A stretch of 40,155 nucleotides of DNA from Seison nebaliae (Eukaryota). Under the pieces are notes generated by a model. That model was not told the origin of the DNA. It saw only the letters and a program-made list of their open reading frames with translations, and searched no databases. Location: assembly GCA_023231475.1 (NCBI GenBank), contig JALJEE010001969.1, positions 1 through 40,155 of the forward strand, in the 5' to 3' direction. A program made the position numbers and the translations under genes. Shown here piece by piece: positions 2,630 to 40,155 of the stretch (the first letter of the stretch is position 1; each line of letters starts with the position of its first letter).

Positions 2630-3538
2630 ATGTCGACAATAAAGAAATTCAAAGCTTTATTTTAATTTAGTTTCCAATCATGAGAAATAAAAGTTGAATA
2701 TAGGTGAGAAAATTAAAATTATTTGAAAGAATTGTCCATAGGACATCAAATTTGACCGCTAAAAGAATGAAGAAACAAATAATTGTATCATCTTTTGAAT
2801 ATTTAGAATATTTGAATAGAAACGTTTTTTCAGGAAATTATGCTCTCACAGACCTGTGGTTAAATCATTTGTCGAAGAAAGGATTTATTATCAATTTATC
2901 CGATTCTTTCGAGAAAGTCAAATTGGTAAAAGATGATTTATGTATAGAAATATTCGTAATTGAACCTTACAACTTAAAAATTGATACGAAAAGGTTATTA
3001 TCTTTAAGGTGATGTTCTCAAAATTATTAACAAATTATCAAAGTGGCCGACTGATGTCATTACTTATTAATAAGCACATCTGGTGTAATAATATATGGAA
3101 TACTTTATCCACGATCGGCGGAGCTTATGGTTCTTTGGAATGTTCGCCTTATTTCTCACTAATAGCTCAAAAATTTTCTATTATTCAATACCGTATTGCC
3201 TCAACAATGAACAACGAAATAGCTTTGGGGAAATGTCTCTTATTTTTCACTTATTCACTCATTCAATTAAACAATATTCATTTTGCAAAAAGATATTTGA
3301 GGTTCCTTATCAAACTTGAATTGAATTTAAACAGAATATTTCTAGATATGTGAAAGATAAGTACGGAAGATTTTTCAAGTATGACGTTCGCTTGAAAAAT
3401 ATGTGGGAAGCGGGACGAGTGAAGTTAAAAAGAAGTTCTATATCATCCAAATCGTTCAGTAAATCGTCAAATGATATTAAGAAATTAACAGAGAATGATG
3501 TAGAATTAATTAAACGATGTTTAATACCTTTTCTTTGA
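2630..3538 (+). CDS. DUF4807 / F58A4.6-like protein (~254 aa)
   Basis: Exons 2630-2653 (tentative, GC donor), 2704-2993, 3044-3301 and 3346-3538 join in frame. The motif LSTIGGAYGSL...KFSIIQYRIA...GKCLLFFTYSLIQ...AKRYLR resembles my recollection of DUF4807 (WLSTLGGAFSALG...RCKLYxSxSLIQ). Confidence 0.7.
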
Positions 3539-3547
3539 AAAAGTCAA

Positions 3548-4103
3548 TTAATCTTCGTAAGTCATTTCTTCAAATACCTCCGATGATTGAATGCTCTAAA
3601 TTGATAAATTTAATTGAAAAGAACATAATAAGAAATTATTAACGTGTCGATATTTATTCAAATATTCGATTAGTATCGGCATATATCGGTCGAAACCTAA
3701 ATTGGTCATCGATGTTAAGATGTCCGTTGCCAATAAAGTTTTTCGTCTTTCTTTCGCACATTTATCAGCAGCTCTGTAAATTGATGGATTAACACGATGA
3801 ATATATTATTATTATTATTATTATTCAATTATTATATATAAGAAAGAAAACTCGGATGTAATGAAACTGATGAATTCGGAGGCACATTCTTGTACTAGTT
3901 CCTTCGCTTCTTTTGACACTTTTCCTCCATTCGGTATTCCTTTTTTCATTAATTTCATGATATTCGCGATTGGTAGGAATCGTTCTTGCTCTTTTAAGAT
4001 ATGTACATCCGGTTTCTCACCTAATATTAGTGAAAGTAATTGTAATGTAGTTGGTGATGAAAGAAAAACTTTCCAAATCTGATTCATAGTCTTCCTCTCC
4101 CAT
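3548..4103 (-). CDS. NFYB: Nuclear transcription factor Y subunit beta (histone fold), 126 aa
   Basis: Exons 4103-4070, 4020-3852, 3773-3644 and 3595-3548 give [12 protein letters not shown]...[16 protein letters not shown]...[38 protein letters not shown], the NF-YB core. Confidence 0.95.
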
Positions 4104-4247
4104 ATTAAAGGTGGTACTCGTCTATCAAATTATCACTTAACGATTTCAGAGTAGTTTCCTTCGATATTTTTTAAATATTTTTCTTTTTTAAATTTGAGTT
4201 ATATTTCAAATAAATTCCTTTCCAAAATTGAAGCATAACAATAGCAC

Positions 4248-6731
4248 ATGATGGTGTGGTATGATGAGATTGCAAATCTCGAAAAGAAATTAGTGAAATT
4301 ATCAGGAATAAATGAAGATTTAATTGAGAAGCAATTTGAGAAATGTGATCAATCAGTAAAGAAGAAGTTGCAAGACGAAGCAAACAAATTATTTGATGGA
4401 AAATATAAGAAGTTTTATGGGAAGATTGAAAGTAAGAAAGATGAATGTCGGACTGATATCTTTCTGAAGAAATTAGTGAAAATGCAAGAGAGTCTCCTAT
4501 CAACATCTGACAACATTTTCAGTGAACTGTGGAAATCATTTGAAGGTGAAAAGAAATCAGCTCGATCTACAATGGAATTTATGGAGGCTCTTCAACAATT
4601 TTTTTTGAGTCCTAAAACGTTGCCGAAAGATCGCCAATTGAGAATGTTCTCTCAAATGCCATTAAGTTTATTGGAAAGAATGAGGAATGAGAAGAAGTTC
4701 CTTAATAATTTAGATGAGGAGTTATTGATTTTATGGATTTTTGAAGAGAAGTTGAAGATGCATCATACGAAATTTATGAAAATATTGGAGAAAGAAGCAA
4801 TTAGTTGTAATCCGACTGTTCGAACGAAATCGATTGATATTATTTATTCATTAATTAAGAATCAATTAGAAGGCGAGAAATATTTGTTATTTATTCTCGT
4901 AAACAAATTGGGAGATACGAATACTCAATTGAGTAGTAGAATTTTATATCGACTAAAATTATTATGTTGTCACAACATCGAAAGACAATATGTCATTTTC
5001 GATGTCCTCCAACATTTCGTTCAAAGACCCAATCTCAACGAGAAAACTCTTCATTATGCACTTTGTGCGTTTAACCAATTCGATTTACGTGATTCTGGAG
5101 CAAGTAAATTTTGCGAGAAATTAATCTGTTTTTATTTCCAATATTTTCAACAACTCATTGATAAATCGAATGAGAAACATGAAGAATTGAATGAGAATAT
5201 TGTGACATTCCTTCTTGATGCATTAAGGAAAGCTTTGAGTTATTTGAAAGAATTCGATGGAATTTCAATGAATATGGAAGATTGTACAAAAATTTTATTG
5301 CGATGTGCTAACAGTAGTAAACATCAACGATTATGGATGTTATCATTCATCGTTCTACAGACATTATTGAACATTCAATCGGAAATATCTGAAGATTATT
5401 CATCATCATCTTTATCAATTATTGATAGATATTTTATGGCTCTATATAAACGTCTCAACGATTCTAGTGTTCTTTCTGGTAATTTTTCAAGATTGAACGT
5501 TAAAAATTACGCGTCCTTTTCTTCTTTAATCTATTCAAGCATTAAGAATGATCGTGTTGCTCATCGTCAATCAGCTTTTATAAAAAAATGGTTATCTTCC
5601 GTACTTCAATCACATGCTATGAATTTTAATTGTGCTACACTTCAACTTATCTCAACATTGGTCAATAAAGAGAAAGATCGATTTATCACAAATTATCACA
5701 ATGGAAAAGAATTATCGGTTAAATTGTACGGATCTGAAACACGGAAACATAAGATAATTGAATGTTCATCATCTTGGAATCATATAACTAATTTGGGTAA
5801 TCACGATTCTGACGATGATGACAACGAAAAATTCGAAAAGAAATGTTATGATCCATTATATATGAATCCATCACTATGTGGAATTGAATATACTGCGAAT
5901 TGGGAATTAGTTCTCCTTCAAAATCATTATCATCCTACATTGGCATTATGGTCAAAGGAGCTTTTAGAAGGAAAGTCATTATCATCTGTTGAATACGAAG
6001 GAGATCCATTCGTCGATTTTGAATTAATAAAATTTTTAGACCGATTTGTTTATAAGAATCCAAAGAAAATTTCAAAGAAGAATAATGACAATGAGGAGAA
6101 GAAATCAGGAGAATCAAAGAAGAAACGAAATGAAATAAATCGATCATTATATTCATCACAACGACCACCAATTGATTACAGTAATGTTACAGAGTTAAAT
6201 GAAAAATCAATTCCGATCGACGATCATTTTTTTTATCAGTTCCAATTTTTATATTTAAAAAAAAACTACTTTCTTAATCTTCCACAGTTATGAAAGAAGC
6301 AAAATTTACTCAAAAGGGGAAGTTGATGAAGATTTAGAAGATTTTGATGATGATGAATTTGACAACTATTTGAGTTTAGTAGTCAACTATTTTTCCATTT
6401 TTTAATATTTTTTAAAGGTAAAACAGAAGTGGAAGATCTTGATGATGTTGGTGATGATCTAACGTCATCGATAACGTTAGAGGAATATTTTGAGACGCCG
6501 AAACGGTTAACTGATGTTGAAAAATCGTTCGAGACAACTAAAATGAGAAGGGTTCGAAAAGCAAAAGAAAATCAAACATCTGAATTATCAGAAAGTAGCG
6601 ATGATATGGAGGAAGATGATGAAATGATCGCTTCACTGTTAGATAAACAAGAAGAGAATCAAAAAGAAGAATTGGCAACGAAGCGAAGAAATAGAAACAA
6701 ACCGAAAAAGGCGAAAAAACGAAGAAAATAA
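4248..6731 (+). CDS. CEBPZ: CEBPZ / Mak21 / Noc1 (CBF domain) ribosome-biogenesis factor, ~796 aa
   Basis: Exons 4248-6238, 6288-6373 and 6418-6731. Motifs EGEKYLLFILVNKLGD, DRYFMALY, YDP..MNP..C, WEL..L..HYHPT, YEGDPFVDF.LIKFLDRFVYKNPK, and an acidic then basic C-terminus. Confidence 0.92.
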
Positions 6732-7668
6732 TCAAAAATTGAAAAATAGAAGACCTATTTGAATTTAATGATTTGGAAGAAATAAATATTTTTAATTCCA
6801 CTTAATAAAATCGAAATAAAAATATATTGAATGACTATTACTTCATCGATTTTATCGACTATTTAAATTGCGAAAGTGAATGTTAGTCTTCTACAATATA
6901 ACCTTGTTTTTATTCTTCTTTTGTCTATAAGATATGAGTTAAACAAGCCTCTTATAATTATTGAAATTTCATTGAACGATTTTGTAGAAATAATAATTCG
7001 ATTTATTCAGAAACAAATGTCTTGTTATATATTTAATCGTCGATTCTGTTGATGTCAATTTGAAAGAATGAAATTTCCTTCATTAATGGAAATTAGTCAG
7101 ATTTAGTTTAATTGAAACTTTTAACATATCCATAACACCCTCATTATACACATTACATAAGTTGCAGAAGATCATTTAAAATTGTTTTTTATCATTTTCC
7201 GTAAAATTTGTTTGGTGAATGTTAAGTAAATAATAGTTGATATAAATAATCGAATAATCCGTGAAAGTATTGTGACTCATCAGAATAAGGGAGAAATGCC
7301 TCATTTTATCATGTACGTCTCAAGTCTTCCAATGCATTTTCTACATCTGACCTTACATATTAGAGAACTATAATTCGTTTTTTATGAGTTTCTTTATAAA
7401 AAGAATTGAGTGTGTGATAAATAAAATTACTCTTATGCTGATACTGTGAGACACCTGTACGTAAAGGGTGAAATGGCGTAGAGCCACGGGGTGAAGAAAC
7501 GACATTCATTTATAATAAATCGAAGAGTTCGGACAACAAAACTATTAAATCATTTTTGAATAAATAATTTCAGAATAACTGATACATTCCAATACGAGAA
7601 TTTTTCCTTTTTTCATTATCTGTTAATATGCCATTAATATCTTATCAACATTCCTTTTATCAAATAGA

Positions 7669-8358
7669 ATGTTTTCTTTATTTTTCCTTATCTTACTCTT
7701 ATTTCAACAACTACACTCTTACGACCCAGTCAAAGAAGGCTGTGTTTCATCAAAAACCGATCCGTTCAGTTGTTATAAAGGAAACTGCATCAAATTAGAA
7801 GATTTGGAAGAAAGAATTTGTGATTGTTCCACCGGATATTTGGGTAAATATTGTCACGTGGATGAAAGTTGAAATTCTCTCTTATTCACAAAGTAATTGG
7901 TCTATAATTCATAGAATATTGTTCGACGGGTGCTTGTGAGAAGAAAGAGTTAATTTGTGGATCCGACGACCAAACCTATCAATGTTATGAAGAACTATTG
8001 CGAGCATCTTGCTCCGATGAAATGTTATTTGCTAAACATACAGGAGAATGCGGAATAAGTTTTTATCAAATTTAGAATATAAATTTCGAAATTAATTCAC
8101 TTTTGTATAGATAATCCGAAAAACTCATGTATCATACCAGGGAAAAATTTAATCAAAATTAATCAACAAACAGAAAGAACGATTGGCCATTTCCAATGTT
8201 CTTGTGGAAATGAGGCGAATTTAACATGTAAAAGTGAATTTAATACTTCCCAACTCTTTTGGCCCATTGATATTTCACTTAATTCGGGAAATCATCATTT
8301 TATTCATTATATTTTGCTTCTATTCGCCTTTTCAATTTCTTTATGTAGTATTTTATGA
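7669..8358 (+). CDS. Secreted or GPI-type protein: signal peptide, EGF, Kazal, Cys-rich module, hydrophobic tail (196 aa)
   Basis: Exons 7669-7867, 7915-8058 and 8111-8358. EGF: C..C...GNC...CDCSTGYLGKYC. Kazal: ICGSDDQTY...C...HTGEC. C-terminus HYILLLFAFSISLCSIL. Likely 46-nt 5'-UTR intron at 7622-7667. Confidence 0.8.
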
Positions 8359-8642
8359 AAAAATTATGAAGATCATTATCATTTGTTGCAAAAAATCGAA
8401 GTAGACTTATTTGAATGTCGACAAATATAGAAGGCAGTTATTCAAATTATTAGGTACAGAATAGAGATATGAAAAATTTAAATATTATTTTTATTTAATT
8501 TCAAATTAATCTTATTCTTTATTTTATCTTACATTATTTATGTTTATAGAAGTTATTTGCTAGATATTATGTTATAATTTTCTTAAAAGCTCAAACTAAT
8601 TAGCATTCAAATAATACTTTGTACATACGAAACTTTTTTCAG

Positions 8643-8945
8643 AGAATAATGATTGTGTTAATGGAAGATATGTGAACTTACGAAAGAAAAAAGTTTGTAT
8701 TTGTGTGAAAGGTTTTATTGGGGAATTTTGTGAAATAAAACGCTCTTCACTGCATGATCCATGTTAGTCTTTGTTTGCTTATACAATATCTTATATTCCA
8801 ACAATTGAATTTAGCACGAAGTAAGAAATGTGTATTTCCATTTTATTATAATGGAAGATGGTTCAAGAAATGTACGCGTTTCCACTTTTATACAAAATGG
8901 TGCTCGTTGACATCAATATATCGAAGAGATTGGTCTTTCTGCTAA
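8643..8945 (+). CDS. Partial EGF-like plus fibronectin type II domain protein; 5' end unresolved
   Basis: Exon 8643-8762 (DCVNG...CICVKGFIGEFCE), intron 8763-8814, exon 8815-8945 (CVFPFYYNGRWFKKCT....KWCSLT..Y..DWSFC, an FN2 signature). I could not find a clean in-frame start. Confidence 0.65.
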
Positions 8946-9026
8946 TTAGATGGGTTATCAAATATCTTAATAAAAAATTATATTTATTTATCGAAATAAA
9001 TTGAAGACGAGTTCCTCAACATTCTT

Positions 9027-12000
9027 TTAAAGTATTTTAAAATTACCAGATAAGATGATTAAGCTTATTACCGTTGCCGTTAGAACAGTAAGCACACAAC
9101 CGATAACTGAAACCGTCCACGCATATTTGGCATAGAGTATTGCATTCCTTGTTCTTTTCAATTCTTCGGATTTGATAGACAACAAATTTAATAGAACCGC
9201 AAGAATACCTGACCAATTTGAGAATTTATGTTGGAAAGAAAAAAAATTGAATAACCGAAAGGCGGATTGAGTAAACAACATAAGAGAGCTAAGATTATCC
9301 ATCTTTTCGCCATTTTTTGGCTTTCATAAAATTTGAAAAGTTCCATAACTTCTTCTTTTGTAATACCACGGAGAGTGAATGGTTTCAGCATATTCTCTTC
9401 CAGTTGATCTTGTGGTGAAAGTTGAAAAAGATAAGCACAAAAATAGGAGCAAACCGTTTGAAATATTTAATGAATCAGCCACTTTATATTTTGGCATTGT
9501 TTTACCTTGTCAATTAGGAAATTAAATTATCATGAGTAATCATTATTCACTATTGATCATCAAATAGTACTGTTGCGAAGTGAATTTGTGTCAGTATTTA
9601 TCACTCAATCTCTCATGACAAACAACTCATTTTTAAGAATTTAAATAATAACTTTTTGATTTTGATCGATTTTTGGTGAGTGAACTTTTAGATGATTTGT
9701 TTTTTTCCAAATTAACAGTAGTAGCAGATTTTGCAGTTTTCGACTGTTTATCTGGTACCTTAGAAGTTTTTTCGGAAGTTGGTGAACCAACAGATTCTCT
9801 TACTATTTCACTTTCCATATAAAACTTTTTGAAGGTGCGAGAAGGTGAAGATTGTTTATAATTACCTGAAGTAGTATCGGTATATTCACTGGAATCGGGT
9901 AATGACTCTTTCGTCGACACCATAGTATTTGTTGATGGTTTGTGTAATAAAACTTTCGTGAACTGTTTTGAATCAGGCGAAAATGATTTTCCTGATTTTA
10001 TGCTTCTATTGTCTGTTCGTCTTCCAACGAAAGATTTCATATGAGGTGGAAGTGAAACTTCGTTCCCCCCAACATCATTTTCTAATCCTTTTGATTTTGT
10101 TTGGGTTTTCGACTGTTTTGAGGATAATAATGGTTTCGAATTTACTTTCTCGACTGAATCTTTTTTCCTCGATTTACTCTGATTAGTTTCGAATAATTCA
10201 TCTTTTAATGTTGTACCGCTATTTATTTTATTGGATTTTTTTGAGAGTTTGGATAAGCTGTCAGATGGATTTATGTCTTTCATTTTATTATTACTATTAG
10301 CAGGAAGATTCCCCTTGGATATCTTGGCGTTTGAAGTATCACTTTCGTGATCAAACTTGGTTAAAGGTTTCGAAGGAATTCTCGATGGTGGAAGATTAAT
10401 CGAAGGATCTTTTTCAGATTTATTTCTTTTTTTACTTATTATACCGGTAGACTTATCAGAAGAACTTCGTTTTATATCAGCGCTACTCTTTCTTGATTTC
10501 GATCTTTTTTCCTTCTTATCTTCAGATTTTGAGATTGATTCCGATTCTGTAGATGACATCGAACTATAACTATATCCACTTGAGGATGATTTCGAATTTT
10601 TTATTCCATTATTTTTGCTCACTCTCTTGGAACTAATTCGAGTACCAGTTGAGGAATGACTTGAATTTGATTCCGAACTTATACTTCGTCTCCTACTAGA
10701 TACCGAACTATTTTGTCCTTTACGCTTTCTTCGTCGTCTACTCCTCCGATCAGGCAATGATAGACGAGTTTGATCTTGGGAACGCATACGTTCTGTTGAA
10801 TTCTTACCTCGTTCATTGTAAATTTTAACAGTAGTTTTTGAGATATTATTTGCAGTTTTTGAAGAAGACTTTGCACTTGTATTGGTATCTCGGGGAACAT
10901 CAAATATTTTATTCAATTTTTCTTTTGATTCACAATTGTTCTCTGTAGACAATGAATTCCTGTTTAAGTAGGCTAGCCATGTTAAAGAATCTTCCTTATC
11001 CGAACTGTTATTAATATTGATGGTTGTCTTGTCACTTAACGAGTTTACTAGAGTCTCCATCTTGTGAAATTCGCTTTCCTTCATGTTCGAACTGTTAACG
11101 GTAGATGTACTATTTGGAACTTTAATTAATCTACCATTTCTCATATCAAAATTGATAATATTTACTGAAGGGAGTTTATCGTTAGGCTGAAAAAGAAAAT
11201 CAGAAGTTATTCTCGAAGTGTTATTCACTTCAAAACTTACTTCTTCCACCTTATTATTATGTTGTCTTTGTGATTTTGGCAATTGTTCGTCGTCAACTTC
11301 TAAAATTTTTTCTTCAAACTCATCTCCGGATATTAGAAAGTTATGATCAGAAGATTTTCTTGAAAATGTGATTATACTACTTCCACTCTTCTCTTGTAAA
11401 AGCATTGGAATTAATGGTAAATCGTTCACATTCTTATTCTCTAAAGTGATAGAATGATGTTCTATTAGATTTGAATGTTCAACTTCGTTAGGTTCTATAT
11501 GAATTGTGAACTTCAATTCGTTCCTTGAACTAGAATTATAATTTTCGTCAACTATCTCATATGTTTTGTTCAGGATGTCACTTCTACTATAAACTTTAGG
11601 ATCTGCACTTAATACAATCGGACTAGTTTCTTTTAACGTTTCAAAATAGTTATGAGAAATATCAAAACACGATGTCTCATCCGTAATCTCATCGACTTTT
11701 TGTTGTTCATTTGTCTGTCCTCCAACTATTTCATCATTCATAGATCCGTCATTACCGTCGCTAGAATAATTGTAATGACTGAAATTTTAAAAAATTTCGA
11801 ATAATATTTTTGTATTGAGGAAAAATGAACTTTAACTTCGTTGGAAAATCATTGAGACTATCTGTCAAACTAATTGCATCTTTCGAAGTATCATCTCGTT
11901 CGTATGAATAATAAGTGTATACATCTTCCGGTGAAATTTTGACAACTGATTTCACTAATTCCAGATATTCATTTAATGTTGAATCATTTCCTGTTGAAAA

Positions 12001-12396
12001 AGCATACTTTCTATCTCCCACATCTTCATTAGCGAATGAATTGATGAGCTGGAATCCTTTGAACATCTCGTTCTGCAATTCCACACAAAAATATTGACTT
12101 TTTTCACGTTTTGATGAAATATTGGATGATGATGATGACGAAGATAGAGATTTTGAGAGTACTTTCTCAAAACTTTCTTTATCTTTCTTTTGCTTTTCCT
12201 TTTTTATTAACCGATTGAAATCTTTTACATACTTCTTCAAAAGTTTTTTCATTTTATATTTATTATACTTATTAACTCTTTCAGAGATATGTGGAGAACA
12301 AGTTTCCTCTCCATTCTCATCAGTAGCCTCTTCTGTTTTGTCATCGGTTTCCTCAGTAGAAAAATCCGTTTCATTCGAGTTTCTTTGTAAATTCAT
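9027..12396 (-). CDS. Large Ser/Lys-rich protein with a C-terminal CD225/dispanin-like membrane domain (~1017 aa)
   Basis: Exons 12396-11837 (alternative donor gives 11831), 11760-9653, 9505-9455, 9408-9256 and 9208-9027, with all phases compatible. C-terminus WIILALLCCLLNPPFGILAVLL...A..YAKYAWTVSVIG matches the dispanin pattern. Confidence 0.7.
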
Positions 12397-12610
12397 TGCG
12401 CATTTGGGAAAATGAGGAATTGATTTCCTTAGTTTTTCATTTATTCATATATTCTTCACTCTCGATGATAATGGTTATATGATATCTTAAAATTTTACTT
12501 GTTTCATTTTTATTTTATATCATAATTATATTCTTTTAAATGAGAAGCTATAAATTTTCATTTTTCAATGTATTATCAAATCAGAATTGTTTGTAAATCT
12601 TTGTAAAATT

Positions 12611-13661
12611 ATGGGAGAGAACAAAGTTGATTTGACAGAAGTAGAAAATTTTGCAAAATGCGTTTGTGTCTCTTCACCGACTCCGTTATCTATTTTCGAA
12701 TTTTTAAGTTTCAAATTTTTCTTTTTTATAATTTCTAATTTGTCTGAATGAATTGTAGAAGATTTCCGAAATTTATGCGGAGACAGTTTCAAATTTGAAC
12801 GTTTCGGATTCTCTTCCGCCGAAAGATGTTTAGAATCGTTTAGTTCATTAAGAACATTTAAAAAGTTGGAGAATATCTTCAACATCAATTGTCCTAGTTT
12901 ATTTCTATTAAATAAATTGAAGAGAAGGGAAATTTTTCGTCGAAGCAAAAACGAATTATCAGATATGTGATTTACAGAAATTGGTGCAAGAACAAAAAAA
13001 AGTATATTTATTTTCCATATAATTTTATAATGAGAATTTATATGTAAATTTTCTATAGTCACACAAAGTTTCAGATTTTGACAATGTAACTCGACGTCGA
13101 ACAACAACAAACCATCGAAGCCATCATCGTCAATCAGAAAATGTGATCGATGATTACCGTCGTCGTGATAGAAGTGGAAGAACAAAATCGATGCCAAATA
13201 GACAAAATGAAAACGGACGTTCGTTTCGTTACGACAAGGAAGAGAAATTGAGAAATATTTCAATAAACGAAAAAAAATATCATTCATCATCCGCAAACAA
13301 AAGAGAACATCGAAATAGAAGAGACTCTGATTTAATGAACAACATCAACGAAAATGAAGAAAACGAAACGAATATGTATTTTTGCTTTTGTGTTAAACCG
13401 AAAGATATAATTATGAAAGATTGTCGTGCTTTGCAAATAAATATCCTCTTCCATGATAATTTATTTCAAAATAATCGACTTGCTGCCCATACACAAATCG
13501 ATCGTCTTGTCCCTCAAATTGAAACGCAAATGTGGCTAGATGGCAATTCAATGAGAAGATCAGAGAAAACGAAATGGCTTAACAATGCTTCCGTTTTATT
13601 AAACGACGAGAATTATAATATGAAAGAATATATCGGTCTCCAGAAAGAATTCCTCAATTGA
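12611..13661 (+). CDS. Extended-LOTUS (OST-HTH) domain protein without Tudor domain (294 aa)
   Basis: Exons 12611-12707, 12759-12864, 12923-13001 and 13059-13661 give CVCVSSPTPLSIFEFLKDFRNLCGDSFKFERFGFSSAERCLESF...FVEAKTNYQICDLQKLVQEQK. This fits the LOTUS consensus (DY...G..I.Y..LGF.S...FL.S) plus the LV..QK extension helix. Confidence 0.72.
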
Positions 13662-13856
13662 CTTATACAAATTTTTCTCACTCTTCTTTATTCCATTGTA
13701 TATAAACTCCTCAACAATCTCTTATATTAGATGAGATTGTCATCTAAAAATTATTCGTATAGTTCGTTTATTTCATATTGAAAATAACATTTTACAAAAA
13801 AAAAACAAAAAATTTAAAGAAAATAAACAATTTTTTTATGAAAACGGAAAATGTTT

Positions 13857-16043
13857 TTATCGAAATTTATTCTTCATTACTTTCTCGTAAATTGATGGGT
13901 ATGTCAATTGAAACTGACAATTGTGAGAGAAGATTATTGAATGTAATATAAAATAAATTCTAACTTTTTCCAAATGTTTCTGTTTGATTTTCTCGGAATA
14001 TTCTTTACTCTTAACGATGTCATGCAATAGCTTCTCTAACTCAATTTGAAGTGTTTGTTTTCCGATTTCGTTACATCTCTCTTCAGAAACCTGTTGACAA
14101 TAAGAAGTAGTTCCCTTATTGAATATGGTTGACATTGAATGACTATGTCGAGATAATTGTTCTTGATTATGATACATCGATTCTTCATTAAATCTCTCAC
14201 GATTATTTACCGTATGATTGAAATTATGAAAATGTTTTAATCGAAATGGAGTCGATACCATATTCCAATATTGAGCATTATTGTGAATCGATCGATGGAA
14301 ATCAGAATAAGAAGATAATGATGGAATATTGAGGAGATTGACAGAAACGGCGTTAAATAACGAATCTTGATTATTAATAAGACAAACAAATAATTCTTCG
14401 ACGATTTCGTCGAATATCATCAAATGATAAGAATGTATATTCTCTTCATGTTGATTAATGAAACGACGGAACAATTTCTCTGAATTTCCAATTAAAGGCA
14501 CCTTGAATGACGTGATAAGTACCGTTTCTTTTGATTTCTTATACAACTGTCTTAATTGACCATTTCTCATTGTACGTCGTATAAATCTCAACATCAAATG
14601 CAGAAGACGACGATTCGCAGGTTTCATCAATAATAAAATAGCATGCATCGATTTTAATATATTCTCCCTTCTTTCATCATATTCATTTTCCATCAAATTG
14701 TCAGTGTGAGGTATTAAAGTTTGTAATCTCCTCCCATCAAATATTCTCAGTAACATGTACACTAAGTTGGAAGAAATTATAGGATGTGCCATTTCATCAA
14801 AAGTCGACAAGATGATGTCCATTATATCATTCTCAATTCCTCGATAATATCCAATATTTGGCAATATTTTTTTGGGCCATTCAATCAACGATTTCATTGC
14901 AGACAGGATCCCTGAATCGATTGATAATTCGTCGTTCGGTATATTTTGAACTACTCCACTATCACTAAAATATTTTAAGTTGTGAATTAAATTCTTTTCA
15001 TATTTCTCATACAACTTTTCCATAATTCGATTGGTTTTAAATGAATCAGTTCGACACTCCATTCCACCTAATATAGCTGACTTCCAATAATAGAACGATT
15101 CATCTCCTGTAATCATTTGAGGTATTCTCAATGAAACTTCAGAAGTCGATTCTGTCAATTTGACATTTCTTTTATGGACCGAATTACATTTTTCACCCAT
15201 ATTCAATGAACTGATTGATTGACTGTTCGATTGACTCAATTTATCCTTCTTTGATTCAGTCGTTATTGTAGTGGTAGTAGTTATGAGATTCTTATTATCA
15301 AAATTATCATTAACTGTCAGATTGAGATGATTGGTGGCAGATAAACAACGTTTGCCTGCTAATGACCTTCCACTCTCATTATGACTATTCATCGATTCAT
15401 TTCGACATTTTGATAAATCTTCTTCTGATTTATTTATTGGACGACAACTATTCGATCTTCTCACATTATAAAGTTTAAGAAGATCAAATCGACTTAATCG
15501 AAGTTTAGAAATATTGTTGTTCAATGAAGTTAAATTGGGACGATATGAATTTGATTTTGTCAAATTGAATTCTTTTTTCTTCTCATGTTGTTCAGTATGA
15601 GTGGAATGTCGTTTAATTTGAGTAGGGAGGTACAACGATTTTTTTGGTAAAAATCTCTAAGGAAATTAGAAAGTTGGTGGGAATATTAAAGAAATAAAGA
15701 GACTTATAAATTCGATTATTTCCATTGAATGACTTTAATTGATTGGATGTATCGAGACCGACTTCTTGGAAGACTCCAGCCGATTGGAAACAACCGAGCA
15801 ATTTAATAATATTCTCTTTCGACGTTTCCGTACCATCTTCTTTCCCTTCGGTAGAAAACCAATCTTCGAACCATTTCACCGCTTCGCTACCATAAAAACA
15901 ATTGTCAAATGTTCGTAGATATTTCCGATGTTTACCGGTTGGCATTCGAGTTCGGAAGTCATCAATCATCCGATTCCACTGAAATAAGCAGAATAATAAT
16001 ATTACAAATGTACAAGACGAACCTTATTGGTTGCATTGAACAT
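13857..16043 (-). CDS. DEPDC1: DEPDC1-like protein (DEP plus RhoGAP-like domain), ~680 aa
   Basis: Exons 16043-16023, 15978-15704, 15654-13965 and 13913-13857. Motifs FNATNKWN...FR..MP..KHR...FDNCFYGSEAV.W, AMK.L..WP, LLL..ANRRLLHLMLRFI, SYCQQVS, FQ..YP.IY. Confidence 0.88.
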
Positions 16044-16305
16044 TCTTCTCTCTTCACTTCACATCGGAAGAAGCTGAGCTCAACTTTAAATATAGGCGAA
16101 ATGAAATAGAATTAAATAATTTATATTAAATTTATTTATTTTTTTAAAATCGTATTCTGGAAGAAAGCTTTAATTTTAAATTCCTTCTATTTTAAGATTG
16201 TTTCTGAATTTTGTGATTAAGAAATCTCTCATCGATTGAGCAATTGATATACAGAAAACAAGAAATACTTTGGATTAGTTGACACAGATTTTCACAACAG
16301 TTACC

Positions 16306-17288
16306 ATGACATATATGACGCCAATAAAAATTGGTGCGAAAGTTTTGGTTTGGCACGAAGGTAAAGTATTAGAAGCTACTGTAAAATATTTCGGTAATAT
16401 TAATGGACGGAACGGGGAATGGGTCGGTGTCCAGTTAACTACCAAAGGTTACCCATCCAAAGCATAAGGAATTTAAGTATTATTATTAAAATATTTTTAT
16501 GGTCATTAGACGGTGACACTAACGGAACATTGAAAGGTCGACAATATTTTACGTGTCCAAATAATTTAGGTTTATTTGTCAGACCTATATGTGTTAGATT
16601 ACAATTAAATCGACGACGGTTAGTCTTCTATTTATTTCATTTCAATTGGCTGGTGGAATTATTTTAAAGATCATTTAACCGATATCGATCGATTGCGCCA
16701 AAAAGTGAATGTAACGAATCTCCATTCAATAATAATCATTTGAAAAAGTTTAAATTGTGCCAACATTCAAGAATTTTAAATAATACTCATTTTGGCAACG
16801 GACTAACCAATAAGCATACTATTGACAATGCTCTTTTAACAAAAACTGAATTGACGTCAATGCCATATCATCAATATCAAGATAGCATGCATGAAGAGAA
16901 TTTTCGAAAGAAGCATTCGTTGTTACATCATGAGAATATTTTGAGTGTTCGCATGAAGAAACAACAAAAATATCTAAAGAAACATCGACAATATGAAATT
17001 GAATCTTATCGGGAAGAAGCTCTTCGTCCCTTTTCCGCTACTCTCGACAACTATATAAGCAATTCGAATATGTCAGAAAAAGTCATTAAGGTTCAAATGG
17101 ATTCTACGAACAAGAAACGAGTAACGTCAGCTCGCTTGCCACCACATGGTTTCCATCCAACTGCTTCAATACCATTACAACATATGGCAATCGAAGATGA
17201 ACTAAGAGGAAGACTCGATTCAGATTGGAATGAAAGGAATCCACTTCCGAGAAATACCTCATTATCAATGGACATTCTAAATCGATAA
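16306..17288 (+). CDS. CAP-Gly domain protein (289 aa)
   Basis: Exons 16306-16447, 16510-16618 and 16670-17288. Domain motif ATVKYFG....GEWVGVQL....GDTNGT..GRQYFTC....GLFVRP. Confidence 0.88.
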
Positions 17289-17470
17289 TCCACAAATAAT
17301 TTTTATATCCGACCACAAGGAAGATCATTGTTTCTTTTCTATTTCAAACATTTTTATAAGATTATTGTTGGTGTGGAAATATTCTTTAAAAGAATTATTT
17401 GAATGTTTCAATTAGATGTACAATCGGATAAATTATGTATATTACTCTTATACTTTATTTCTAGACTTTA

Positions 17471-17505
17471 TTCTTCTTCTTCTTCTTCCTTCTTCGTCTT
17501 CTCCT
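17471..17505. repeat. Imperfect (TTC)n microsatellite
   Basis: ttcttcttcttcttcttccttcttcgtcttctcct. Confidence 0.7.
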
Positions 17506-19638
17506 CTATCATTGCAATGATTAAACAGAAATTCTCGAATAAAATCAAATGTCTTTAGACCTTCTTCTCTTCCCTCTACTTAATATCATTGGTGGTTGAT
17601 GGTTAATTAACCTAATAGTATTTCCGTGATAGAATCGATTAAAGTCGAAACCGACTAAATATAATCCAATTTATTTGACATTTACTATACGAAGACCTTC
17701 TTTCCTTTATCATTCGATTTAATTAAGTTTTTGTTGTAAACGAAAATTAACGAAGGACTAATTAATATATATAGAAATTTATATATCTTTTAATTGACGA
17801 TCGTTTAATTCAAATTCATCTTATTAGAATCGTTGATGATATTCTATCAAAATCGACTTATAGATCATAATATTGATAAGATAGAAATTGTCTATCTAAT
17901 GAATGAATTTTTTTTTCTTATTTTATTAGAAACTATAATAAATTAGAAGAATAATAATGAGAATAAAGAAGAAGAAAGAAGAATGATAATTAGAATCTAT
18001 AATGAGAAAGAAGAAAAAAAATCTCAACCTATATTACTTAATCAGTAACGTAATTCCATGAATGAATGAAAAGAACGAATGAATCGATGATCTCTCATCT
18101 AATTTTCCATTATTTCCATTAATTTCTTTCTTTCTTTTCACGAAGGCATTATTCCCGTTCACTTTATAAGTTAAATTAATAATTTAGAGTTCTTTCCTTT
18201 TTTTACTCTACTTATCTAATTTTGTTCGGACATTTAAATTCTCCAATATTCAATGAGAATCAATCCATTGTGTAAAACATTTGTAAAGTTCTGTTTAGTT
18301 GGAGGTAGAGTGAAAGACCGAATTCGATCTCCCAAAACAAAGAGTTGTGTGGATAATTGTGTTTAAGATATCCGTTCTTCTAATCTTTTCTAGATTTGAA
18401 ATTCGATTAATTTTCTAAAACGAATTGTGTGAAAGGAAATCTGTAAGAAACATCAAGGGATGGAATTCATGATAAGACAATGTTAGATAAGACGCAAGTA
18501 ATGAAATGAAACTGCTATTACAATCCTCACTTGTTGTGACCTCATTCTATCAAAAAGTTATTTGATCGAATCTTCATGTTCAGTGGGTGAAACGTGTGGA
18601 AATAGATTAACACTACTGGATTACAACAGTGGATGCGTCATCTTCATCATAAAATAATCACTTATTTCGCCATATCATCGTCAGAATTTCGTCGTATCAA
18701 ATAATATCAAATTTTTCTCTTACGTCCAGAATTTATTACGTAAATTCCAAAATTCAATAAACAACATTGTTCTTTATTCGATGTCGAACACAAAAACTAA
18801 AGGAAAATTCACTTATCATTTCCCATCATTTTTTTCCACCAAAATATTCTTCGTAAGAGAAGAAATGTTAATATGTTAGTTACTCTATTGATTCCATTAT
18901 TACTAAAATTAGATAAAGAAGTTAATTTTTTGGTTTCTTTTCTCAATTCCTTTTTTTATCACATTTCCGAATTACTAAACAAGATGATGATAGAAAGAAG
19001 AAATTCCATCGATCATCTTTTATTAATTGGATCGGAAGTGTTATATCATTTCCCACCTTTTCTCCAATATGAAACATCTCCAGAAGTAGATTGAGAGGAA
19101 ATAAAAAACTTTTTTCTTTCCTTAATTTTCTGAATGGTGTTGTTAGTGTTATTGTTAGTAGGAATTGTTAGTCCAAGTAGCAATTGTAGCGACACTCTAC
19201 CTTCTCAATAATTATGCGGAAAACCGACTAAAAAAACGAATTAAATAAAAGAGAGTTCACGCTAAACGTGAAGAATTGACAGTTACTCAGCAAGACTCCT
19301 TTTCATGTTTCTTGTTTGTTAAACGGAATTCATCGATATTAATTTTCTATCAATAAATTTACTTTATTCTCAGTGGGAAATGAAAGAAAGGAAGCAAACA
19401 GTTTGTAAATGTATTTCCAATAAGATTTACCTTAAAACCATAAAAGCAATTCAAGTGTATAACGTGTAAGTGGAAGTGCGACAATGCGTGAAAGAGAGCA
19501 ATTCACCTTCGAAATCTTTTGGTAGAATTATCTGAAGAAATAATCAGCTGTATAAAAACGGCTGAAAATTACGTTCGAAATTTGGAACTTTGAATTATTC
19601 TCATTATTATTATTCATTCACTTTTCTTTTCATCCAGA

Positions 19639-21898
19639 ATGAATCCCTTTACAAAATTATTATTATTTTTAATTCTCATTTTCCAATATGCCAATGTTAT
19701 CCTAGCTGAAGATGGTAAATTGCTTGTTTGTTATTATACCAATTGGAGTCAATATCGAAATGGCATAGCACAATTTCAACCAGACGATGTCGATCCACAT
19801 ATTTGCACTCATATCGTTTATGCTTTCGCTAAATTGGATGGTAATCAATTAGCAGCATTTGAATGGAATGACGATGAGCAAACATGGGATATTGGAAATT
19901 TCAAACGGATAATTAATTTGAAGAAGATCAATCCCAATCTGAAAATTTTAATAGCACTTGGAGGATGGAATATGGCATCCGAACCATTTACTAAGGTTGT
20001 TGAGAATGAGAAACATATAGAAGAATTTGTTAAATCTGTTATCGGTTAATTCTTTTATATATTAGCCATTCAATGGTGATTTAATTTTAATATTGCAGAT
20101 TTCTTGAGGAAAAGAAATTTTGACGGTTTTGACATGGATTGGGAATATCCTGCGAATCGAGGATCTCCACCAGAAGATAAACAAAGATTCACCAAACTTA
20201 TTAGAGTTTGAATTATAATGATTATTTGTCATATTATATCACTTGTTTAGGATCTACGAATTGCATTCGAAGAAGAAGCAAAAATAACAGGAAAAGAAAG
20301 ATTATTATTAACAGCGGCGGTTGGTGCAGGAAAGACAACGATTGATTCGGCATATGAAATTGCAGAAATCTCGAAAGATTTAGATTTAATTAATCTAATG
20401 ACATATGATTTTCATGGACCGTGGGAGACGGAAACTGGATTGAATGCTCCACTATATGGTAGAGAGAACGAATCCAATGATTCTCTTTATTTAAATCAAG
20501 ATTTCGCTGTACGATATTGGATTAGACATGGTGCGTCTCCAAGTCAATTAGTAATGGGCATACCAACATATGGACGCGGCTTTACTTTGGAGAATGCTAA
20601 CAATACAAAATTGGGTGCTGCAGCTAAAGGACCTTCCAAACAAGACAAATATATACCGGAACCAGGTATTCGTGCTTATTACGAAGTTGAGTTCTTATTC
20701 TTCAGTAACTTCATATTTTCCTTTTCTACTTAGATGTGTCAAATGGAAAAAGAAGTGGATGTCACTAAAGTGTTTAATAGAGAACATTTAGCACCATATC
20801 TTTATTTCGGTGATCAATGGATCGGTTATGATGATTTAGAAAGCGTTGGATATAAAGTTCAATATTTGAAGGATATGCATTTGGCAGGTGCTATGGTTTG
20901 GTCATTAGATTTCGATGATTTCTCTGGTCACTGTGGTGGAGAAAAATATCCAGTAATTCGTCATATTCAGAAAGTTCTTCACAGTACTGATCGTATAACA
21001 ACGCCGGTACCGGTAGTAACGAAGGAAATAGATATTAATAAATCGACTATGAAAGAAACTGTTCCACCAATCAATCCCACAATCAAATTACCAATTACAA
21101 CTGAACCGCCAGTAACAAAAGTTAATTCCAAATCTGGTAGCAATTTAAGTTTGGTGGAAATGATTCGAATGAAAGTGGAAGAGATAATTGAAGAATTGGC
21201 AAGAAGAAAACTTGACTACTGCAAGGGAAAGGAGAATGGTTTCTATCGTGATCCCAATAAATGTGACCAATATATATATTGTTTAACTACTAAGGACGAG
21301 AATATTTACATGTATCATGGAAGTTGTCCTGAGTCATATATCTTCAACACTAAATCATATATGTGTGTCGAATCAAATAACGTTTCATTTATTTTTTCCA
21401 AACTCTTTTCATATTTTCTTCGTTTAGGATGAATGTATTGATAAAGGAAATCCCGACGAAAAGAAAGGAGGAATTATTCCAATTATTCAACAGACTCTAC
21501 CGACCAATAAACCAACATATTCCACCACACAGAAACATATTGTGAAGCAAACACAAGCACCAATTACAAACTCACCTGTACGACCTCAACAACCAACCTC
21601 AACAATCGATCCTCTATTGGAGATAATCGATAAATTACCAACTATTCCCGAATTACCTCCAGGTCTATTCACCGATTCACCTTATCCAACAACTGCTAGG
21701 AAATTCGAATGTTCATCTGGTGCCTCATCAGCAAAAGCTTATGCCAATCCAAACAATTGTTCTCAATTTTTTATGTGTTCCAATGGACAAGCCATTGTGC
21801 GCGATTGTCCACCAACCCTTATCTTTGATCCTAGGGTTCAATCTTGTAATTTTGCAACAGCAGTGCCTTCAGGTGTTCTCCAATGTAAAATGAATTAA
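19639..21898 (+). CDS. Secreted GH18 chitinase with Pro/Thr linkers and two CBM14 (peritrophin-A) domains, 688 aa
   Basis: Exons 19639-20044, 20099-20205, 20251-20685, 20734-21381 and 21428-21898. Signal peptide, [20 protein letters not shown], intact catalytic [32 protein letters not shown], and two 6-Cys CBM14 domains. Confidence 0.96.
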
Positions 21899-22180: not shown

Positions 22181-23968
22181 TTACGATAAAGTTTGTAACT
22201 GTTGAAATATTGGATGGTTGAGGATGTTGTTGTTAAAGAAATCTTCATAATTCACAGTGCGATATTCCTCTTCGTCCAAATTAACGGTATCCTGCATCGT
22301 ATTTATACACTGGGCCAAGTCGTTGTTCTCGGAAAGTTTTTTAATTTCTTCCATATTATTTCTATAACGACATTCCACGTTCTTATTCAAGCCACTAATG
22401 AAAAATTGTTTTTGTGTATTAGTCAAAGAAACGTCTCGTAAGATATTGGAGAAGACTTTATGATGACAAAAATAACCAGCATATTCATATGACGATACGT
22501 CGAAAGATAATTCTACTTTCTTCTCAATTTTTTTCAGAACCGCCTCATATTCCATTCCAACAAGAGCAACCTCATCATTCCATATCATAGAGGTCGGATA
22601 GTTTAATGTACTAATGTCAAACATCGTTGCTACCAAAGAATAAATATCAGAAAACGGAGTCAGTATCATATTTTGTGATGCCTGCCTAGTCAATTGCATT
22701 AGTAATTCAGGTGAGGAATATTTCAAAATTTTTGATGAAGAATTTTGATAAATCCAATGGAATGCCTGTGTCACAGCATTATTGATGAATTTCACATCTT
22801 TCTCCATCAATTTCTCACCTGGCTTCCCTATTCGTACACTGCAATCGAAATGTCCAAGTTTATAATTACCGTTAGAATCATAAAATATGGAAGCGGGACA
22901 AATGGCATTATGAAGTATTCCCACATTACAGTGAAGAAATCGTAACGCTCGTTCCATCGAATAAAGTATGGGTAAAATTGCATCAATGGAATATCGTTGG
23001 CTACCGAAATTAATTGCATCTTCCATCGTCTCCAAACATTCGAAATTATATTGAAGTATCTGCGAAGAAGATGTTTCATACACATTTTCTAACGAACATA
23101 AGAATTTCTCAACGTGTTTTCCACTTAAATTTGTTCGCATTTGTTCGATGGACGACAATTTTGGACTACGTTTACTATCTTCTTTCACTTTCTTGCTAAT
23201 CAGTTTCATGTTTTCAACGAAATGATAACAATTCGGCAGGTTATTATCAACAACTTCCAAATAACGATAGTTCGATGTATTGGCAGATCTTCGACTTATT
23301 AATTGACTATTTCGCATTAACAATTGATCTGCCTTATCTCCACTAAGTTCGACTGGCGGTCTCGCCAATAGTCGATATTCTCCTTGGATATTCGTATCAG
23401 TTTTAGTCGTATTCTTCACAATGGTGAAACGGTTAGACTTGAACGTCTTCTCAGAATTTCTTATATAGGAAGAAGTTAAATGTTTCAAATTCAGCTTATT
23501 TGAAAGATATCGTTGCTCAATCTGGTAACAGAGTTTCTCAGACGAATCGATAGAATTATTATTGAAAATTCTCAAGTTGTAAATATCAGTCGAGTATTTG
23601 GGTGTCTTTTTCCTAGTGATAGTTGAACGTACAGCATTTAGCATAGACTTTATAGTTCCATGAGAATGTAGTAAATTTGTCGTGTTGCTCATCGATCGAA
23701 GAGCATCGAAATCTTCTTTTTCATCTTCTTCTTTCCCTTCTCCTTCATCACTGTCACTATCCTCTGATTTATCTTCTTCTATAATTTGTTTGTCGGTCTG
23801 ATAGGCATTGATTAACTGCTGATTTTTAAGAATTTCGTCATTAATATGTTCCTGATTATCTTCGGAATATTCTCCCTCTGAATACTTCCTCAACATTTCT
23901 TTCGCTATCAAATTTTCGACATCATCATCTGTTCCAGTTAAATGATCGGTTTGATAATATCCATCCAT
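22181..23968 (-). CDS. Pseudokinase with acidic N-terminus and SCY1-like catalytic-loop pattern (595 aa, single ORF)
   Basis: LRFLH..VGILHNAICPASIF...YKLGHFD...YSSPE...SDIYSL. Kinase subdomains VI-IX are present, with HRD changed to HNA and DFG changed to HFD. Confidence 0.75.
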   Translation of the reverse strand: MDGYYQTDHLTGTDDDVENLIAKEMLRKYSEGEYSEDNQEHINDEILKNQQLINAYQTDKQIIEEDKSEDSDSDEGEGKEEDEKEDFDALRSMSNTTNLLHSHGTIKSMLNAVRSTITRKKTPKYSTDIYNLRIFNNNSIDSSEKLCYQIEQRYLSNKLNLKHLTSSYIRNSEKTFKSNRFTIVKNTTKTDTNIQGEYRLLARPPVELSGDKADQLLMRNSQLISRRSANTSNYRYLEVVDNNLPNCYHFVENMKLISKKVKEDSKRSPKLSSIEQMRTNLSGKHVEKFLCSLENVYETSSSQILQYNFECLETMEDAINFGSQRYSIDAILPILYSMERALRFLHCNVGILHNAICPASIFYDSNGNYKLGHFDCSVRIGKPGEKLMEKDVKFINNAVTQAFHWIYQNSSSKILKYSSPELLMQLTRQASQNMILTPFSDIYSLVATMFDISTLNYPTSMIWNDEVALVGMEYEAVLKKIEKKVELSFDVSSYEYAGYFCHHKVFSNILRDVSLTNTQKQFFISGLNKNVECRYRNNMEEIKKLSENNDLAQCINTMQDTVNLDEEEYRTVNYEDFFNNNILNHPIFQQLQTLS

Positions 23969-24110
23969 TTGGATGGGAGAAAGGTGAGAATGAAAAATTG
24001 AAAATAAAATAAAATACTTTTTTCGTTTACAAAGAATTTTCTATTTTCTATTTGTTCTTTTCTATTAAATTAATTTGTTACATCGAAAATAAATAAATAT
24101 TTATATAATC

Positions 24111-39670: not shown

Positions 39671-40155
39671 TCCATCGTTGATCAATCTCCTGTAAATTCA
39701 TCATTACAATCCTCATTGCAACCCACTCCACAGTTATCTCCCAAATACGGTTGTCGTCCAACGAACGATGGACATTCTCAACATATTTCGCCAGAATTAA
39801 ATGGTTATCCGTTTACTAATCCGCCTCCGCTGTAACAACAGCCCCAGATGAGTCCACGTCAAAGTGAAGAAAGACTTTCGTTAAATCAACAACGATTATC
39901 GTCTAATTTGCAACAATCATTTCAACCGACATTATTCTTACAAGAACAACGGATAACGATGAATGAACATGAACAGTCAATTTTAAATATACCATCAACC
40001 AGTTCTGATAAATTTGGAAATCTTTATTTGAAGAATCAGAATGATCTCTTCCAACAACATTATGGGCAAACGGAAACTATGTCTTTGGAAGAACAATCAA
40101 GACTTTTACTTCCGCCAGGATTAGATATAATGGATGCATTCAATCCAAATAGTTT
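39641..40155 (+). other. Q/P/S-rich coding-like frame, truncated by the window end, with one internal TAA (39833-39835); possible start at ATG 39848
   Basis: About 510 nt with a single stop in AT-rich DNA: ...QSSLQPTPQLSP...TNPPPL*QQPQMSPRQSEE...LLLPPGLDIMDAFNPNS. No recognisable domain. Confidence 0.45.

Follow-up and report, generated by a model that had tools for sequence, protein, structure and literature searches.

GTT begins nearly all introns in a 40,155-nucleotide stretch of the Seison nebaliae genome: a possible re-coding of the 5' splice site in an animal

The marine rotifer Seison nebaliae (Seisonidea) is epizoic, and its genome is compact, with ~46 Mb and 32% G+C (PMC8351084). We analyzed positions 1 to 40,155 of contig JALJEE010001969.1 (assembly GCA_023231475.1), hereafter the window, 40,155 nucleotides (nt) in full. 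It contains pieces of the Pfam families NF-YB, CBF/Mak21, DUF4807, Kazal, fibronectin type II, DEP, CAP-Gly and GH18/CBM14, and its exons recovered the deposited S. nebaliae proteins SNEBB_004087 (a chitinase exon, 100% identical), SNEBB_004080 and SNEBB_004084; when foreign homologues were sought for the latter two genes, only deposited Seison proteins were returned. An earlier note on this DNA had described 26 introns in 10 gene models, almost all starting with GTT. All 27 donor coordinates listed there (one intron had two candidate donors) carry the hexamers given for them, and joining of the exons, with acceptors chosen in the present work, yields open frames. The introns are given below with the evidence that places each of them.

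2994..3043, plus strand: intron of 50 nt, donor GTTATT, DUF4807 gene; protein P0111; a frame-keeping GTAATT lies 38 nt upstream
3302..3345, plus strand: intron of 44 nt, donor GTTCCT, DUF4807 gene; protein P0111
3596..3643, minus strand: intron of 48 nt, donor GTTAAT, NF-YB gene; transcript gap
3774..3851, minus strand: intron of 78 nt, donor GTTTTC, NF-YB gene; transcript gap; intron piece of a divergent relative aligned from +3
4021..4069, minus strand: intron of 49 nt, donor GTTTTT, NF-YB gene; transcript gap
6239..6287, plus strand: intron of 49 nt, donor GTTCCA, CBF/Mak21 gene; frame; a transcript row starts at 6288, the base after the acceptor
6374..6417, plus strand: intron of 44 nt, donor GTTTAG, CBF/Mak21 gene; transcript gap
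7868..7914, plus strand: intron of 47 nt, donor GTTGAA, EGF-like/Kazal gene; frame only; GTA and GTG alternatives keep the frame
8059..8110, plus strand: intron of 52 nt, donor GTTTTT, EGF-like/Kazal gene; frame only; no other GT donor keeps the frame
8763..8814, plus strand: intron of 52 nt, donor GTTAGT, EGF-like/fibronectin type II model; frame only; one transcript row is unspliced here
9209..9255, minus strand: intron of 47 nt, donor GTTATT; transcript gap
9409..9454, minus strand: intron of 46 nt, donor GTTTGC; transcript gap
9506..9652, minus strand: intron of 147 nt, donor GTTATT; transcript gap
11779..11836, minus strand: intron of 58 nt, donor GTTAAA; transcript gap D58
12708..12758, plus strand: intron of 51 nt, donor GTTTCA; protein P0112
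12865..12922, plus strand: intron of 58 nt, donor GTTGGA; protein P0112
13002..13058, plus strand: intron of 57 nt, donor GTATAT, the only donor with A at +3; protein P0112
13914..13964, minus strand: intron of 51 nt, donor GTTAGA, DEP-domain gene; transcript gap
15655..15703, minus strand: intron of 49 nt, donor GTCTCT, the only donor with C at +3, DEP-domain gene; transcript gap
15979..16022, minus strand: intron of 44 nt, donor GTTCGT, DEP-domain gene; transcript gap
16448..16509, plus strand: intron of 62 nt, donor GTTACC, CAP-Gly gene; frame; flanked by Pfam CAP_GLY positions 2-34 and 38-62
16619..16669, plus strand: intron of 51 nt, donor GTTAGT, CAP-Gly gene; frame only; no other GT donor keeps the frame
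20045..20098, plus strand: intron of 54 nt, donor GTTAAT, GH18 chitinase; protein P0005; blind aligner 16/16
20206..20250, plus strand: intron of 45 nt, donor GTTTGA, chitinase, at a position common with bdelloid-like loci (GTT in 9/10); P0005; blind aligner 16/16
20686..20733, plus strand: intron of 48 nt, donor GTTGAG, chitinase, at a position common with bdelloid-like loci (GTA in 8/8); P0005; blind aligner 15/16
21382..21427, plus strand: intron of 46 nt, donor GTTTCA, chitinase; P0005; not placed by the blind aligner

All 26 introns run from GT to AG, and each junction has a single GT..AG placement among its equivalent slides. At the third intron position (+3), the counts of the earlier note were reproduced, with T in 24 introns, A in one, C in one and G in none (95% interval for the share of T, ~76-98%), and no donor reads GTAAG or GTGAG. 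The excess of T is significant against both the base that follows GT in the window (T fraction 0.411; p = 6.5e-8) and the intron interior (T fraction 0.469; p = 1.3e-6), whereas A (1/26, p = 5e-4) and purines in general (p = 4e-5) are depleted and C is not favored (1/26). We hold with high confidence that GTT is a near-fixed donor start in the window and, with only slightly less assurance, that it is the genome-wide donor rule of S. nebaliae.

The introns were placed using three kinds of evidence. Assembled transcripts aligned to the genome assembly (PMC8351084, supplementary file 2) include at least 14 transcript-to-genome rows at window coordinates (rows 2328-2357), the NF-YB row having been found by its exon and intron lengths. 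At least 11 of the 26 introns equal gaps in these rows to the base (3596-3643, 3774-3851, 4021-4069, 6374-6417, 9209-9255, 9409-9454, 9506-9652, 11779-11836, 13914-13964, 15655-15703 and 15979-16022); ten of them begin with GTT and one with GTC, and in these 11 alone the excess of T remains significant (p = 9.5e-4 with the after-GT background and 3.2e-3 with the interior background). Spliced evidence for other donors was sought, and among the rows listed at window coordinates there is no gap with any donor other than GTT and the single GTC; no row in this set covers the chitinase gene or the DUF4807, EGF/Kazal, CAP-Gly and 12554-13661 genes. The transcript gaps also decided between the candidate donors at 11836 and 11830, in favor of 11836 (GTTAAA, 58 nt), and gave a length of 49 nt for the GTC intron. 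Nine other introns, eight with GTT and one with GTA, reproduce the deposited proteins P0005, P0111 and P0112 letter for letter; these models are gene predictions rather than independent RNA evidence and thus count for less. Three of the nine were also placed by a spliced aligner that is blind to +3 and knows only GT/GC..AG, with foreign chitinases as queries (16, 16 and 15 of 16 queries); this aligner also introduced long gaps, judged spurious, into the unconserved linker of the chitinase, and it left the intron at 21382 unplaced. Pfam profile positions are continuous over three chitinase junctions (98/100, 131/132 and 256/258) and one CAP-Gly junction (34/38). The other six introns (6239, 7868, 8059, 8763, 16448 and 16619), all with GTT, rest on frame. 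Contigs from sequencing runs that were checked are DNA-like, with no intron joints, and bear neither way.

If constraint beyond GT were relaxed, T-rich introns, selection by the reader or the small sample could mimic a fixed T at +3. The introns are indeed 47% T, positions +4 to +10 are near background, and alternative GT donors that keep the frame exist for 15 of the 26 introns (the scan for such alternatives returned an empty list for five introns, because the flanks used ran into stops). However, the frequency of T at +3 is far above the interior fraction, as given above, and well above the T content of positions +7 to +20 in the same introns; T shows no comparable excess at +4 (10/26, with A also in 10/26) or +7 (9/26); ten of the 11 transcript-matched introns begin with GTT; and T is the third base in only 10 of 25 unused alternatives. 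We regard relaxed constraint as scarcely probable.

The earlier note also held that G at -1 and +5 is largely lost, which is an overstatement: both are weak (+5G in 7/26, -1G in 8/26), but neither is lost. The frequency of +5G still exceeds the overall G content of the introns (7%; p = 0.002). A purine is found at -1 in 23 of 26 introns (A in 15, G in 8; p = 1e-4) and A at -2 in 18 of 26 (p = 5e-4); therefore, the donor signal is A(A/G)|GTT. The information content is ~0.7 bit at +3, 0.67 at -2, 0.48 at -1 and 0.39 at +5, and positions +4 to +8 as a group add little to the signal. Intron length is between 44 and 62 nt in 24 of 26 cases. Four branch-point patterns were tried upstream of the acceptor, and none was found above the level of shuffles. 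The motif RTATCCTT, which marks donors of minor (U12-type) introns, is present in 0/26, and this class was rejected.

For a comparison with related taxa, ten chitinases of Adineta and Rotaria were aligned, and this alignment led to 14 metagenome loci, which probably belong to bdelloid rotifers and are called bdelloid-like here because of their similarity to Adineta/Rotaria chitinase proteins. Introns were obtained with the same aligner from 11 loci (L002-L005 and L008-L014; none was kept from L001, L006 and L007), and 104 of 162 candidate junctions were retained, the other 58 having support from fewer than 5 of 9 queries or a flank score below 8 of 12 (nine dropped L004 junctions, found with two queries only, comprised seven GTA and two GTT). 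The bdelloid-like introns, which represent repeats of 15 positions (+3A in the majority at 13, GTT at 2), have A at +3 in 89, T at +3 in 14 and G at +5 in 71 of 104 cases, as opposed to +3T in 24/26 and +5G in 7/26 in Seison (p = 2e-4 for +5G); the comparison of Seison with the single locus L004 (GTT in 2/12) gave a Fisher p of 8e-6. The commonest bdelloid-like hexamer is the yeast-like GTATGT (22/104), a high count that is partly due to few positions repeating across loci. Bdelloid-like and Seison introns have in common the GT..AG termini, the length (mostly 44-64 nt in the former), two chitinase intron positions and the base composition (interior T 0.445, and T 0.425 for the base after GT, in the bdelloid-like loci). 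Since introns of like make-up use +3A, the Seison +3T does not result from composition; a composition artefact was rejected, and the same observation argues against relaxed constraint.

The two sets of introns also differ in how +3 is related to its neighbors. Of the 14 bdelloid-like GTT donors, 12 have +5G and every one has G at -1 or +5, whereas among Seison GTT donors +5G is present in 7 of 24, and -1G and +5G are both absent in 12 of 24 (p = 0.002). Thus, GTT is a compensated exception in the bdelloid-like loci and the rule in Seison, where +3T, found in donors without +5G compensation, is a positive signal and not a tolerated mismatch. The fixation levels at +3 are similar (T in 92% in Seison, a purine in 87% in the comparator), which is what a swap of the partner base would produce. 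At one shared chitinase intron position (300, phase 0), GTA is found in 8/8 bdelloid-like loci and GTTGAG in Seison, which suggests conversion of an old GTA intron to GTT and was counted as support. Because 24 of 26 introns begin with GTT while bdelloid-like introns begin with GTA, the Seison splicing machinery is likely to read the intron start by a changed rule; the contrast with ordinary animal donors drawn in the earlier note is borne out by the transcript gaps and by this comparison.

A low-depth relative (runs X2, X4 and X5 of one sample), ~85% identical in the NF-YB exons and with the same neighbor gene linked, has an NF-YB intron 2 of 43 nt, compared to 78 nt in Seison, with an unrelated interior. 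The aligned piece starts exactly at +3, so the donor of the relative would read GTTACT, compared to GTTTTC here (three edge letters follow from the alignment boundary), and this edge is suggestive of possible constraint on GTT. Intron 3 of the relative (piece aligned from +6, two mismatches in 3639-3654 unplaced) and the donor of intron 1 (beyond the letters compared) were not counted.

In line with the earlier note, no report of near-fixed +3T in Seison, rotifers or other animals was found in the literature searched, which was mostly outside subscription journals; the accessible parts of PMC10125929, PMC13161344, PMC10639083 and PMC10599564 contain nothing on rotifer donors, and supplementary file 1 of PMC8351084 has no mention of introns, splicing, small nuclear RNA (snRNA) or small nuclear ribonucleoproteins. 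A genome-wide survey could reveal other animals with a high GTT share. In some nematodes, GTT donors make up a sizeable minority. In the animal Fritillaria borealis, the 5' splice-site rule has likewise moved away from GTRAG genome-wide under the major spliceosome; however, 95% of its introns leave GT/AG and its U1 5' end is unchanged (PMC13326754), whereas Seison keeps GT..AG in 26/26 and differs only from +3 on. The closest known case is Entamoeba, an intron-poor amoeba with a stricter donor: its introns begin with GUUUGU(U), read by a co-evolved U1 (AACAAAC), with GUUUGU in 88-90% and GUUUGN in 97-98% of donors (Roy and Bowser, bioRxiv 10.1101/2022.06.08.495308); it serves as a precedent for the reading favored here. 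Both have U at +3 in nearly all GT-AG introns; unlike Entamoeba, Seison has A and T equally often at +4, +5G in a minority and no GTTTGT donor; it is also an animal, and most of the genes considered here contain several introns. An Entamoeba-like U1 pairs with Seison donors no better than the canonical one (-2.53 vs -2.55 kcal/mol).

In the usual duplex, U1 position 6 faces donor +3. The canonical pairing is ACUUAC/GUAAGU (Roy and Bowser), and G44 of U6, whose ACAGAGA box reads +3 to +5, faces +3 later (PMC11732430). The GTRAG consensus complementary to canonical U1 is absent from Seison, with a purine at +3 in 1/26. The mean pairing energy with canonical U1 is -2.55 kcal/mol for Seison donors, -2.22 for neighboring GT decoys and -5.31 for bdelloid-like donors; A at U1 position 6 alone would bring the Seison mean from -2.55 to -3.32. 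Fixed T, depleted purines and no favor for C at +3 form the pattern of an adenosine partner, and for this reason we favor, tentatively, nucleotide 6 of U1 snRNA as the adenosine that faces +3U. The spliceosomal base opposite +3 would then have become adenosine, most likely at this position, and its pairing with +3U would take the place of the usual pairing between U and +3A/G. The introns would be removed by the major (U2-type) spliceosome, and the donor would be picked by the G-U-U core together with the purine-rich exon end, which may pair with the uridines of U5 loop 1 and, around positions 9-10, with U1; the remaining information would come from the shortness of the introns and their richness in U. 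Along with the change in the machinery, old GTA introns would have turned into GTT introns.

The adenosine could instead reside in U6, if a change in the ACAGAGA box (G44 to A, perhaps also C42) allowed +3U to pair and made +5G matter little. The drop of +5G from 71/104 to 7/26 does point at the U6 helix, in which G44 faces +3 (PMC11732430). Nevertheless, the U6 box is catalytic-core sequence, unchanged in both Entamoeba (Roy and Bowser) and Fritillaria (PMC13326754), and we consider its change improbable. An unchanged G44 would favor +3C, found only once; depletion of A and purines with no favor for C fits an A partner better than U6 G44.

A canonical U1 placed one base out of step, by a shift or a bulge, would also pair +3U with an adenosine (A7) and the -1 purine with U10. 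Shifted-register 5' splice sites were reportedly described by Roca and Krainer in 2009, and they have the GTT start in common with Seison. In the +1 register, -1 pairs in 23/26 and +3 in 24/26, and A outnumbers G at -1, in keeping with U as the partner. The shifted helix, however, goes no further: +4 pairs in 13/26 and +5 in 14/26 (0.44 and 0.57 in GTT decoys), +6G in 2/26 and -2 in 5/26. No GTT-RAG or GTTGCGT class is present among the 26 donors (+4R in 13, +5A in 7), which have no displaced RAG after GTT; shifted-register donors were rejected on the absence of the displaced GTT-R-A-G consensus, and we hold this explanation to be very improbable.

Finally, all snRNAs could be canonical and +3U selected by changed proteins or RNA modifications (U1C, LUC7, SNRNP27, Prp8, N6-methyladenosine or pseudouridine patterns). 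In Fritillaria, splice sites changed with the U1 5' end, U6 box and U5 loop unchanged, and a protein or modification cause was proposed (PMC13326754). Perturbations of METTL16, SNRNP27K and LUC7 move donors from the U6 class (NN//GURAG) to the U5 class (AG//GUNNN) with strong exon ends (PMC11732430), and the weak +5G, weak +4 to +6 and purine-rich exon ends of Seison resemble donors shifted in this way. Moreover, S. nebaliae has lost ~1/3 of BUSCO Metazoa genes (PMC8351084). On the other hand, Seison prefers A over G at -1 (15 vs 8), and its +3 is fixed as U, not free as in the U5 class; the perturbations act mainly on +4 and on the weight of exon versus intron, and none of those considered here gives near-fixed +3U (PMC11732430); and the printed +3U case that was found, Entamoeba, has a changed U1 (Roy and Bowser). 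We consider a protein or modification cause unlikely, although less so than a change in U6.

A number of observations weigh against the proposed GTT rule or its assignment to U1 position 6. The sample is 26 introns from one contig, six of them resting on frame; some of the frame-keeping alternative donors are GTA or GTG; and a 212-base transcript row (8752-8963) runs unspliced through the intron 8763-8814, although this row may be the 3' end of a minus-strand neighbor. The comparator is one gene family on metagenome contigs, and the other shared chitinase position (171, phase 0) has GTT already in 9/10 bdelloid-like loci. Among donor-like words in exons, GTA is avoided more than GTT (0.74 vs 0.91 of expectation), although CTA and CTT behave alike, and the comparison is confounded by general avoidance of TA. 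The U1 step is deduced from donor letters, and an Rfam scan of the window gave no match. Placing A at position 6 of U1 hardly helps to tell donors from 321 GT decoys (area under the curve, AUC, 0.60 vs 0.59), so this change is not the whole story; only a second, post-hoc change (U at position 9) reaches an AUC of 0.75, and this is circular. A change at position 6 also leaves the weak +5G unexplained. Donor changes with no change in U1 are common, including yeasts, Giardia, Trichomonas, Micromonas and Thecamonas (Roy and Bowser), and in Fritillaria, an animal with changed donors, the U1 5' end is strictly preserved (PMC13326754). The full scenario is somewhat doubtful, that is, an animal with a re-coded U1 (A at position 6, perhaps U at position 9), in which thousands of GTA introns may have become A(A/G)|GTT after the split from bdelloids, the +5G contact having been largely given up and many introns kept.

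Other features of the window were recorded along with the introns. Near the contig end (~115-240), a poly-A run is followed by several imperfect copies of a ~15-base unit. At 3262-3595, the 3' part of the NF-YB transcript overlaps the last DUF4807 exons on the opposite strand. The EGF-like and fibronectin type II model (8615-8945, plus strand) has no clear start codon, and no first exon was found for it. Judging by eye, the N-terminal region of SNEBB_004084 (12611-12864, plus strand) presumably resembles a LOTUS domain; Pfam searches with its single exons gave no match. Two intronless frames of 619 and 582 codons stand head to head (22184-24040, minus strand, and 24093-25838, plus strand); the second has a partial protein kinase match in Pfam, and the first, kinase-like by eye, has only weak and unrelated Pfam hits. 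An intronless open frame of 4561 codons (26015-39697, minus strand), odd beside its multi-intron neighbors and covered by an unspliced transcript row of 13,708 bases, is a putative member of the VPS13 family. In the stretch 7878-12355 of the bdelloid-like locus L004, the chitinase has an arginine methyltransferase region immediately upstream, and the two are joined in several deposited bdelloid proteins (P0094, P0100, P0106 and P0108), which are either real fusions or merged gene models.

Because +3 pairs with U1, almost all animal introns have a purine there. Fixation of T at this position in a lineage required joint changes in the machinery and in many introns. The published example of co-evolution of this kind that was found is an intron-poor amoeba, with few introns to follow, whereas an intron-bearing animal that has GTA-using relatives would offer a direct test of co-evolution between splice signals and snRNAs. 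Questions that could be addressed include the order in which the parts changed, conversion versus replacement of introns, and how far a donor can weaken when intron length helps. In addition, gene prediction programs that were trained on GTRAG donors may place junctions wrongly in the group to which Seison belongs.

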